A stretch of 64,000 nucleotides of DNA, taken from the NCBI GenBank assembly GCA_951406725.2, contig OX597833.1:55738001-55802000 (forward strand), in the 5' to 3' direction. Positions within the stretch are counted from its first letter, which is position 1. The number at the start of each line of letters is the position of its first letter. Shown here in pieces: positions 11,665 to 17,899 of this stretch. The stretch is from Octopus vulgaris. Lineage: Eukaryota. The notes beneath the pieces were generated by a model. It was not told where the DNA came from and searched no databases. It was given only the letters and a program-made list of their open reading frames with translations. Made by a program: the position numbers and the translations under genes.

Positions 11665-11940
11665 CTCCAGTACTAGGAACATGTAATTAGAATGTCGCAG
11701 GGAGGAATTGCAAGGCAGGTTATTCAAGCCGAACGAAACGGCAGGAGATCTAGGGGCACTTTCAGAACGATATGATTGGATAATATCCATAGTCTCTATT
11801 GGTCACGACTAGGAAACCAGCCGGAAATGTGATGACGGTTGATTGTGGTAGGACTCTATGGAGGAGGTGCCTGAAGGCTCAACCCCTCATGAACTTTCCA
11901 GGAAGAGCTGGCAGAGAAGACGGATGGATAGCTAGATGGA
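11665..11940 (+). mobile_element. RTE-clade LINE 3' fragment (decayed)
   Basis: Translates, with lesions, to HVIRMSQGGIARQVIQAERNGRRSRGTFRTI*LDNIHSLYWSRLG. This matches the RTE C-terminal motif GHVxRM...GRRPRGRPRxRWxD. Confidence 0.75.
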
Positions 11941-11951
11941 AATATATATAC

Positions 11952-12307
11952 ATTATTTATATATTATTTATATTTGACAGATATTTGTCCTCATCTTGTT
12001 TGCTGTTAACACAACGTTTCGGCTGATATACCCTCCAGCATTCATCAGGTGTCTTGGGGAAATTTCGAACCTGGGTTTTCATTCCTAAGGTATTTTTCGA
12101 TGTTGTTATTATTATTATTATTATTATTATCATCATCATTATTCAGGTCAATGCCTGGAATCGAATTGGGAATCTTGGGGTTAGTAGCCCGCGCTCTTAA
12201 CCACTACGCCTTTTTGCCCGGGCATATGGCGTAGTGGTTCAGAGCGCGGGCTACTAACCCCAAGATTCCCAATTCGATTCCAGGCATTGACCTGAATAAT
12301 GATGATG

Positions 12308-12388
<81 letters not shown>

Positions 12389-12402
12389 TAAAAAATAAAA
12401 AA

Positions 12403-12440
<38 letters not shown>

Positions 12441-12640
12441 TAATAATAATAATAATAATAACAACACCGAAAAATACCTTAGGAATGAAAACCCAGGTTC
12501 GAAATTTCCCCAAAACACCTGATGAAGGCTGGAGGGTATATCAACCGAAACGTTGTGTTAACAACAAACAAGATGAGGACAAAATACCCGTCAAATGTAA
12601 ATAATGTAAATAATTCCCCATCTTTTAAGTGTGGAATTGA
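11952..12640. mobile_element. Head-to-head palindromic element; each arm is tRNA-like head + (TAA)n + hammerhead-bearing Penelope-like tail
   Basis: Arms 11952-12219 and 12220-12614 meet at gccc|gggc with no spacer. (TA)n lies on both flanks. Confidence 0.8.
12514..12559 (+). ncRNA. Minimal type I hammerhead ribozyme motif (mirror copy 12008-12053, minus)
   Basis: aacac-CUGAUGA-a-ggcug...ca(g/a)cc-GAAA-cGUU-guguu, with palindromic AACGUU as stem III. Confidence 0.75.
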
Positions 12641-12654
12641 AATATATATGTATA

Positions 12655-16290: not shown

Positions 16291-16718
16291 TAAAAGAATA
16301 AAAGAATAAAAGAAAATAAGGTGATGCATTCAGACATCATATCTTAATCTCGTTGTGAGACCAAGATAAGACATATCTTGGCAGTAGTAGCTAAAGTAAG
16401 ATCTGTCTGAGATTTGTTTGATGTTCCTGCTGACATCGCGGCTTCTCGAATCTGAGATCTATCATGACACATCAGTCTCTGAGATTACCAACCGTTTATC
16501 TACTCCTTCTTACTGCTACCGACGTTGGGTTAGTTAACCAACGCCATTGTTGGTTAACGTTATTGTGATGGTGGTGGAGGGTAAGGTTATAGAAATGATG
16601 GCGAGGAATAGTGATTACTGATTGGTGGTGGCGGTGGCAGTGATGATGGTGATGGTGATGGTGATGGTAGTTGGTTGCTTGGTTGCTTGGTGGTTATGTG
16701 TTGTTGTTGTTGTTATTA

Positions 16719-16785
<67 letters not shown>

Positions 16786-16786
<1 letters not shown>

Positions 16787-17341
16787 GAGTGAGAGGGCAG
16801 TTCATGCCATCAAAGTGACACTGGGGTAAAATATACGAAGCCCAATATACCCATCATGACTACCCGTCTGATAAGGGTACACTAGGCACATGCATCACAA
16901 CCATATGTGCGCGACATGGTGATCTCATATCAAGATAAACAGCACATGACCTTGCAGGTGGGGCCCAGTTAGACTTTTCTTTAGGTTGAGTAGCCCATCC
17001 CGCTCAAAAGGTCCCTGGATAAGGATTGTTTAAGGATGTTGAAAGAACCACCCATGTTTCCAGAGGTGAATTATTCAAACCCCAAAGAATCCCTCTCAAC
17101 ACATGGCTATGATGCTCCCCCACTACTTCTGCTCGTGATCAGAGATGCACATATCGTCAGCCACTAAGGGACATGCTCAACTGGTTAAGGTCAAACAACT
17201 GACAAGCAAATCTGTGGTATTGAGCGGAATATTTGCTGTAGCCCATCTTTTATACCAAGACAAAACAATGTACATGATAACACTTCCAATCAGTTAAGAT
17301 CAGAAGCCATGAGAGCCACTGCCTGGTACTGCATCAGGGCA

Positions 17342-17342
<1 letters not shown>
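16786..17342 (-). mobile_element. Family C retroposon, apparently full length, within (TTA)n
   Basis: (tta)n on both sides. Same ends as the 44041-44585 copy. Confidence 0.85.
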
Positions 17343-17397
<55 letters not shown>

Positions 17398-17404
<7 letters not shown>

Positions 17405-17483
17405 TCACTGCCTGGAATCGAACTCGCTCGGGCATATGGCATAGTGGTTAAGAGCGCGGGCTACTAACACCAAGATTCCGAGC
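17398..17483. mobile_element. Collapsed copy of the 12-kb palindromic tRNA-headed element
   Basis: Left-arm piece caggtcactgcctggaatcgaa fused to right-arm piece cgggcatatggcatagtggttaagagcgcgggctactaac. Confidence 0.75.
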
Positions 17484-17576
17484 TCAATAAACACACACAA
17501 CGCCCGATCTGGGAATCGAAACCGCGATCCTCCGACCGCGAGTCCGCTGCCCTAACCACTGGGCCATTGCGCCTCC
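17484..17576 (-). mobile_element. SINE family D head
   Basis: Reverse complement reads ggaggcgcaatggcccagtggttagggcagcggactcgcggtcggaggatcgcggtttcgattccc (A and B boxes). Confidence 0.85.
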
Positions 17577-17899
17577 CGACGTTGGGTTAGTTAACCAACG
17601 CCATTGTTGGTTAACGTTATTGTGATGGTGGTGGTGGCGGTTTAAGTTATAGAAATGATGGCGAGGGTGGTGATTACTGATTGGTGGTGGTGGTGGTTGC
17701 AGTGATGATGGTGCTGGTGATGGTGATGGTAGTTGGTCGCTTGGTTGCTTGGTGGTTATGTGTTGTTGCTTGCTGTTGCTTCTGGTTGCAGCTGACGACG
17801 ACGACGACATCTTTGTTTTTCTCGTTAACGTATTTGTTGATAAGAGTTTGTTATTGCAAAATGGATTGAACGGAATGTTAAACTGCTCCTCTGAACTAG

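Follow-up and report, generated by a model that had tools for sequence, protein, structure and literature searches.

A head-to-head palindrome in the Octopus vulgaris genome as an ORF-less inverted piece of a Penelope-like element with a tRNA-derived, probably Pol III-promoting pLTR segment

Anatomy of the palindrome and its hammerhead motifs

In the window (the whole analysed stretch of 64,000 nucleotides from Octopus vulgaris contig OX597833.1, forward-strand positions 55,738,001 to 55,802,000), two arms diverge from a junction GCCC/GGGC at 12219/12220, each with a tRNA-like head and a hammerhead motif. The locus raises the question of what kind of element leaves such a palindrome. A sequence-only reading had proposed a separate non-autonomous SINE that borrows the tail of a Penelope-like element (PLE) and is mobilised by its reverse transcriptase (RT).

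Reading the sequence and comparing the arms showed each to have a head of 77 nt, followed by (TAA)n, a hammerhead motif and an A-rich end. Identity between the arms is 98.6% over 69 nt in the head and 92.4% over 157 nt in the tail, and the outer end of the right arm is about 29 nt longer than that of the left. The insertion spans 11950-12639 and is bracketed by a 10-nt TSD, which was called by eye; automated TSD scoring over-extended the window copy and returned 3 nt. The features are:

11940..11949, no strand: left TSD AAATATATAT, read by eye
11950..12219, minus: left arm, an inverted pLTR copy with a short 3' end, without the 25-30 nt tail (arm comparison)
12008..12053, minus: minimal type I hammerhead motif of the left arm, without its G10.1 (position 12040; motif reading)
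12106..12141, minus: left (TAA)n (sequence read)
12142..12219, minus: left tRNA-derived head (arm and tRNA alignment)
12216..12223, no strand: junction GCCC/GGGC (family junction survey)
12220..12296, plus: right tRNA-derived head (tRNA alignment and tRNA model)
12227..12237 and 12272..12281, plus: right A-box, and right B-box with its first G changed to A (sequence read)
12297..12461, plus: right (TAA)n, unequal in length to the left tract (sequence read)
12485..12639, plus: PLE ORF start, ATG at 12485, frameshifted in the window copy
12514..12559, plus: minimal type I hammerhead motif of the right arm, mismatched in stem II at 12544 and predicted to be cut after 12554
12611..12639, plus: one-sided PLE tail extension, right arm only (on exactly one arm in 58/63 family pairs)
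12640..12649, no strand: right TSD AAATATATAT, then (TA)n (sequence read)
17343..17479, no strand: second, damaged copy, made of (TTA)n, inverted head 54-77 and head 1-50

The palindrome is a single insertion of an ORF-less inverted piece, and the arms in the window are decayed copies. Much of the initial description stood, including the divergent arms, the junction, the A-box-like sequence TGGCGTAGTGG starting at 12227, the anticodon-like loop, the unequal (TAA)n tracts and the hammerhead cores at 12519 and 12547, while details of stem II, the B-box, the (TA)n and the tail had to be corrected. A B-box is present, but both arms lack its first G (A at 12272). The (TA)n said to flank both sides is long on the right only, the left side being the TSD and the element's own end. 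What was taken for an AT-rich tail is the start of a protein-coding ORF; on the left, too, the hammerhead motif sits within this ORF start (ATG at 12082). The family form of the junction is GCCC-AC-GGGC, which is a self-complementary leader together with the first head bases.

The second copy had been read as sharing the head-to-head join, and this was recovered at 17399-17479; hammerhead and tail are absent from it within the window. Foreign repeats adjoin both its sides. Another tRNA-derived SINE head with A and B boxes, present in 28/343 loci, adjoins the broken copy at 17480-17575 on the minus strand, and a direct repeat of about 190 nt (16516-16706 and 17573-17768, 88-97% in pieces) frames the second copy together with an element inserted in its TAA tract.

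The intact stem II quoted earlier (ggcug..cagcc) is a composite: the right arm has GGCUG/CAACC (G>A at 12544), the left arm is without G10.1 (12040), and neither has the family's intact stem. In the family, the majority of copies keep CUGANGA, GAAA, UH, the extra base 9/10.1, G10.1-C11.1 and a palindromic stem III, and N7 is the sole motif site with a common second base (93 T and 42 A of 142 copies). The ribozyme call rests on reading this motif against published features of minimal hammerheads, which in metazoan PLEs are an extra base 9/10.1, G10.1-C11.1, palindromic 15.2-16.2 and a short stem I (PMC4209133). A search with Rfam hammerhead models gave no match at the gathering threshold nor at E<=10 (miRNA matches in the Rfam scan were artefacts of the palindrome), and neither the hammerheads nor the head folded better than shuffled sequences (z between -0.8 and +0.9). 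The expectation that the core would be more conserved than its flanks was not borne out among 142 copies. Neither the hammerhead core nor the promoter boxes were better preserved than the flanks, as is expected where copies decay neutrally. The motif is probably a ribozyme that depends on protein or on dimerisation and would be dispensable for insertion.

An autonomous element with a tRNA-derived head

The head, (TAA)n tract, hammerhead and so-called tail are the pLTR and ORF start of an autonomous Penelope/Poseidon-type element. Its units, which occur in partial tandems, run from the ORF (RT and a probable C-terminal endonuclease) and its stop across 29 nt to the tRNA-like head, then on through (TAA)n, the ATG and the hammerhead motif into the tail and the remaining ORF. 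An autonomous PLE sharing the tail had been anticipated by the sequence-only reading, and it was found, with the head-TAA-hammerhead-tail block as its pLTR; the unit is thus PLE-related, its head and tail being joined to an RT/endonuclease ORF, and mobilisation by a PLE RT was judged right.

The linkage was seen from several starting points. Endonuclease-like coding sequence lay directly before the head in 2 of the first 30 tail loci. The head directly followed the ORF end in 29/30 loci picked by endonuclease DNA (one being the query locus) and in 26/30 loci picked by a relative's protein, all of the same family, with 29 nt from ORF stop to head. On the other side, the tail continued into the ORF N-terminus in 22/30 loci. 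Two loci (L103 and L106) hold ORF end, head, hammerhead and ORF start in tandem, and in three more (L111, L114 and L125), with the ATG upstream of the hammerhead, the frame is open across it bar single stops.

The ORF N-terminus is 70% identical over 70 aa to a full-length relative of 806 aa (P0025). The single long ORF matched RVT_1 above the cut-off (33.1 bits in L061), with telomerase RT among its weak PDB matches, and the ORF falls among Atlas clusters that carry RVT_1, HTH_animal and GIY-YIG (PF01541 in 27% of one cluster). The C-terminal endonuclease motif VYSIPCSC..YKGET..R..EH was matched by eye to what we take to be the GIY-YIG/CCHH pattern; a Pfam scan of the ORF sequences gave no GIY-YIG match, and the predicted endonuclease fold is poor (pLDDT 44.5). 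The Poseidon label is presumed from a GxPMGSPLSP-type RT without a Zn-finger linker, plus the layout shared with the Anolis element PAc. Several insertion traits of PLEs are present, namely partial-tandem pLTRs including the ORF start, an inverted 5'-truncated copy, a one-sided tail and a short TSD. Metagenome scans for relatives with DNA context returned none, or six distant loci (23-53% identity) without an A/B-box or hammerhead match.

Some copies of the element (L099, L106, L108, L109 and L116) are internally deleted, with the tail joined directly to a point about 400 nt inside the ORF, and these are possible bipartite non-autonomous derivatives. A 9-nt unit in the ORF start (L022 and many others) occurs in 1 to >10 repeats, in frame, adding Asn-Val-Asn. 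A second PLE family (L248-L267, the family of L004) has a C-terminal endonuclease, a hammerhead motif of its own, longer in stem III, in 8/20 loci, and a long Asn/Ser-rich insert in the ORF of L004, which resembles the N-rich inserts carried by rotifer Penelopes.

That the head is tRNA-derived was upheld. It was compared with 37 distinct tRNA sequences of six isotypes from the octopus genome G000 (2.8 Gb) and with shuffled controls; the best match was tRNA-Arg(TCG) (score 64, z 8.7), above all shuffled controls (best-of-set null maximum 49), the isotype being uncertain as most isotypes lie outside the sample. The A and B boxes are in register on the tRNA model (10.8 bits, a weak score). ARAGORN called no tRNA, and the cloverleaf is absent from the head. 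In two other PLE families of G000, a simple pattern search over 20 loci per family found no A/B pair bar that of one unrelated SINE; these two families do show hammerhead motifs. The tRNA-derived pLTR segment is likely to act as a Pol III promoter. It could have originated from a short tRNA retrocopy or a (TAA)n-tailed SINE inserted just past the stop codon, as proposed for TRIMp3.

A free SINE made of head and (TAA)n was looked for in 16 heads without a nearby tail and rejected; in most of them another repeat has inserted within or behind the TAA tract, and reading by eye gave no clear case of a head-only copy between TSDs. The (TAA)n tract is often invaded by other TAA-tailed elements, including a LINE 3' end, presumably Dong/R4-like, and a non-coding repeat of about 560 nt found in 23/343 loci. 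Such insertions lie at 16780-17342 in the window and in L002, L014, L102, L122, L290, L306, L309, L310, L311 and L316; as they split the head from the hammerhead, many heads appear tail-less. Among the loci read, L193 holds tandem tRNA-Cys genes and variants at a spacing of about 155-180 nt.

Copy ends and the possible origin of the palindromes

Exact 22-mers of the tail, head and ORF end matched 9,792, 2,931 and 991 times in G000, and reversed controls 0 times. Calibrated by the exact-match rates in loci not picked by those words (60/174, 13/100 and 22/50), this gives about 28,000 tail arms, about 22,000 heads (a loose figure) and about 2,300 ORF ends, at a pairwise identity among copies of about 89%. 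The palindrome is far beyond chance, as an exact fold-back junction 20-mer occurs 334 times and its reversed control 0 times. With two-thirds of loci inverted, about 28,000 arms correspond to an estimated ten thousand short palindromes. In 3/4 sequencing runs, covering three organism codes, contigs extend from the ORF end across into the head and also hold opposite-strand joints at the head start; these are contigs and speak to neither RNA ends nor RNA levels.

Copies were sampled as the first in genome order: 20 of 991 for the ORF end, 90 of 189 for an exact 45-nt head and 30 of 9,792 for the tail. Among the 90 head copies, 13 run into the ORF and 77 are without it, and 76 of these 77 start within 7 nt upstream of the tRNA +1; the sample demanded an intact head from +1, so ends within the head are excluded. 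The inversion proved to be a family property, as had been suggested. An inverted arm lies directly upstream in 55/77 ORF-less head copies, and the 22 solo copies in which no inversion was detected start at the same place; in the unbiased tail-anchored set of 28 loci, 19 have an inverted piece and 1 has an ORF stub. In the 20 copies anchored at the ORF end, the ends are scattered from -63 to -1430. Of the long copies that reach the 5' pLTR, L103 and L106 extend further upstream, and L114 is the only one to begin at the head. A second hot spot near -200, suspected from 4/13 copies, was not seen in 20 more, where single ends fell at -225 and -170.

Immediately upstream of the head lies a leader of six bases, GCCCAC, complementary to the first head bases. 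Of the 77 junctions, 56 retain all or part of this leader, 29 are leader plus clean fold-back, and other junctions join further in through 3-4 nt of microhomology. An RNase P cut at the tRNA +1 is disfavoured as the source of the 5' end, because leader bases survive at those 56 junctions and the acceptor stem has no pairing. The leader hairpin was calculated at -5.4 kcal/mol as RNA and -1.3 as a cDNA fold-back, whereas two cDNA ends pair at -11.8, which makes two-cDNA pairing as plausible as fold-back. Of 63 pairs scored for the tail, 58 have it on a single arm, and a shared flank word of at least 8 nt (a TSD) was found in 32/65 family palindromes against 0.9% of shuffled pairs; the one-armed tail and the TSD together indicate that each palindrome is one event. 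At two markers the arms agree in 59/64 and 49/58 pairs, far above random but imperfectly, and the 9/58 pairs that differ at N7 are not predicted by strict fold-back. Arms differ from each other nearly as random pairs do (0.069 vs 0.074), so the inserted templates were near-master and old solo copies are rarely re-copied. Private variants common to both arms (33 sites, about three times the null) are a small excess, and this excess was all that gene conversion between arms had to offer; it was rejected.

An independent tRNA-head/hammerhead SINE mobilised in trans by a PLE would fit the roughly tenfold excess of ORF-less over ORF-linked copies and their sharp 5' start, and the small excess of arm-shared private variants allows some secondary sources. 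However, the identical head is carried by the autonomous element, and the solo copies cannot be told from the ORF-linked ones. The markers at N7 (T/A) and at a synonymous A/G site are equally frequent among the 64 solo and the 60 ORF-linked copies compared (Fisher P 0.68 and 0.83), the identities within and between the groups are 0.891/0.892/0.895, and no column has a different majority base, so there is no separate SINE lineage. The SINE part of the sequence-only reading is therefore largely refuted and has very little probability left. Of the hallmarks of a SINE2, the head with A/B boxes is found and a lineage separate from the partner is not; the head-to-tail hammerhead tandems of non-LTR retrozymes are not found either, the short copies being single or head-to-head.

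The account that we favour, and consider fairly probable, is that the palindrome is an ORF-less inverted piece of an autonomous Penelope/Poseidon-type element whose pLTR tRNA segment likely serves as a Pol III promoter. Pol III would start about 6 nt before the head, at the G of GCCCAC, and any copy keeping its pLTR could give a short RNA of about 300-400 nt ending at the first T-run of the flank. By analogy with PAc, this RNA would hold the segment of the ORF start to which the element's protein binds, and target-primed reverse transcription may start at two sites 25-30 nt apart. The cDNA would halt on reaching the 5' end of the RNA; its final bases, GCCC-GT-GGGC, could then either fold back or anneal to another cDNA end of the same sequence. 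The folded or paired end would then prime the inverted arm, giving a head-to-head copy that has the tail on only one arm and is flanked by a TSD of 9-13 nt. Short templates would be about tenfold more numerous than long ones. Their main source may be the pLTRs of ORF-linked copies, since arms differ like random pairs and solo copies have no upstream TATA-like word.

A sharp 5' end needs no Pol III, since PLE pLTRs have been described with Pol II-type promoters and 5' palindromes and no tRNA part (PMC3846280; PMC2377424). Pol II could make the same short template from a TATA/initiator at the ORF-pLTR border, leaving head and (TAA)n as a passive remnant of a SINE or tRNA retrocopy. The word TTTATAA lies at the ORF stop codon, about 30 to 24 nt upstream of the 5' hot spot, and as it also fits Pol II it is not decisive for Pol III. 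Among Penelope pLTRs, those of rotifers and the fly carry either TATA/Inr or internal promoters resembling those of LINEs (PMC3846280; PMC2377424), a capped RNA is a simple account of translation, and Kojima holds Pol III to be too weakly processive for autonomous elements (PMC10886601). Yet Pol II leaves unexplained the consensus A/B boxes kept at tRNA spacing despite loss of the cloverleaf, the start 6 nt before the tRNA +1 and the absence of TTTT over 2.6 kb, and we regard it as unlikely.

Another possibility is that there is no short RNA, and that RT copying a long RNA is halted, or changes template, at the GCCC-AC-GGGC hairpin, the 5' pile-up and inversions being structural. The hairpin is exactly at the hot spot, and rotifer PLE pLTRs have 5'-end palindromes with known self-priming (PMC3846280). 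When the last 1.4 kb of one copy was scanned, no other all-GC stem of at least 4 bp was found (its own hairpin is mutated and was missed), so with the hot spot as the sole GC-rich hairpin found near the 3' end, promoter and hairpin are inseparable by position. What weighs against a structural stop is that this weak hairpin (-5.4 kcal/mol as RNA, -1.3 as cDNA) must halt about 85% of passes, although the stronger fold of the head (-16 to -22 kcal/mol) is usually passed. In addition, 40/77 junctions retain part or none of the leader, and 22/77 solo copies without detected inversion share the start. We give this explanation a small probability, below that of Pol II.

Pol III termination brings a further observation to bear on the preferred reading of a Pol III-promoting tRNA segment. 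Over 2,634 nt of the sense strand, 0 T4 runs are common to half of the copies, against 5.9 expected by composition; there are 30 A4 runs. Under an amino-acid-preserving reshuffle of 1.9 kb of L061, 3.3 would be expected (P=0.017), and T3 is normal. Two other PLE families have 1-4 and 1-5 shared T4 per 0.5-2 kb, decayed ORF pieces (95, overlapping) have 0.36 T4/kb, and the three largest other retroelement ORF clusters have 2.35, 6.2 and 1.8 T4/kb (smaller clusters, some in wrong frames, 0-19 per kb). The depletion is suggestive only, as it concerns one lineage with copies that are not independent, a modest P and an A-rich strand. A sense strand of 2.6 kb without TTTT means that the same promoter could yield full-length RNA. 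A bolder extension, which we consider possible though doubtful, is a PLE transcribed end to end by Pol III, with a captured promoter and purged terminators, translated from uncapped RNA, shedding SINE-like pLTR palindromes by the ten thousand and being a dsRNA source for octopus A-to-I editing.

Implications and comparison with known systems

For the promoter, template and second-strand steps of PLE transposition, this family offers thousands of junctions in which the 5' end is fixed, the leader is self-complementary and there are two 3' ends, and fold-back and two-cDNA priming can be compared directly. If Pol III makes the short RNA, SINE-like behaviour would not require a SINE lineage of its own; should it also make the long RNA, the usual division between autonomous (Pol II) elements and SINEs (Pol III) would be broken. 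R2 is an autonomous element transcribed by Pol I read-through. Annotation pipelines would class the short form as a SINE. In an octopus genome, SINEs amount to 11.6% and are mostly unclassified, and the account of them does not mention a ribozyme (PMC13282606). The octopus is reported to have exceptionally many near-perfect dsRNA-forming loci and hyper-editing, and a lizard Penelope is heavily edited (PMC5625713); the roughly ten thousand short palindromes are candidate contributors to octopus dsRNA and hyper-editing.

A PLE pLTR with hammerhead and inversion belongs to a known class, while a tRNA-type A/B-box segment in a PLE pLTR and a TTTT-free ORF appear to be new. In the literature consulted, neither a tRNA-type segment in a PLE pLTR nor the family itself was found described, and a repeat-database name may exist. 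Schistosoma Sm-alpha and Sj-alpha are short high-copy repeats with a SINE-like part and a canonical hammerhead, occurring in tandem repeats. Unlike the octopus family, they are not known to be the pLTR of an autonomous PLE or to insert head to head.

A palindrome with a one-sided tail is a described form of PLE insertion (PMC3846280, PMC8557442, PMC4209133). For PLE insertions, TSDs of 9-10 nt, inverted 5' copies and a tail of 30-40 nt at one of the ends have been described (PMC8557442), and so have palindromes at the 5' end of the pLTR (PMC3846280). In the Anolis Poseidon element PAc, the ORF starts at the hammerhead, reverse transcription has two start sites within the ORF, and the ribozyme, which needs protein in order to cut, is dispensable for insertion (PMC11167929). 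PAc and Adineta Pen2a (PMC11167929, PMC3846280) share with the octopus PLE a single ORF of about 800-850 aa with RT and a C-terminal endonuclease (probably GIY-YIG in the octopus PLE), partial-tandem pLTRs, an ORF start overlapping the hammerhead, an inverted 5' copy, a one-sided tail of about 30 nt, a TSD of about 9-13 nt and a palindrome at the pLTR 5' end. The octopus PLE differs from them in the A/B-box segment and (TAA)n of its pLTR, in the start of about 85% of head copies there and in its TTTT-free sense strand; the passages on PAc and Pen2a in these sources do not mention a tRNA-type head.

The minimal hammerheads of metazoan PLEs share the motif features and the opposite-strand pairing of the octopus family, pairs 100-700 bp apart on opposite strands having been ascribed to truncated PLEs; the text on these hammerheads mentions neither molluscs nor tRNA, and the octopus hammerhead is a putative one (PMC4209133). 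Animal non-LTR retrozymes (PMC7229834; bioRxiv 10.64898/2026.07.22.740005) are likewise ORF-less hammerhead elements related to PLE pLTRs, but they form head-to-tail tandems and circular RNA, whereas the octopus family is dispersed and head-to-head. With one hammerhead per strand in this orientation, double cleavage to a circle is not expected.

For the tRNA part, RTE-1_DAn and related elements (PMC5786205) are alike in being autonomous non-LTR elements with a tRNA-like sequence; they are LINEs rather than PLEs, and the source does not state a promoter role. The TRIMp3 elements Cassandra, Helenus and Ajax (PMC10886601) also have a Pol III-type promoter derived from a small RNA in the terminal repeat, probably through SINE insertion. 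They are non-autonomous LTR elements below about 1.3 kb, and in that work their autonomous partners must use Pol II. It is against this view that an autonomous element with a tRNA head stands out, the octopus segment being located in the pLTR of the autonomous PLE itself.
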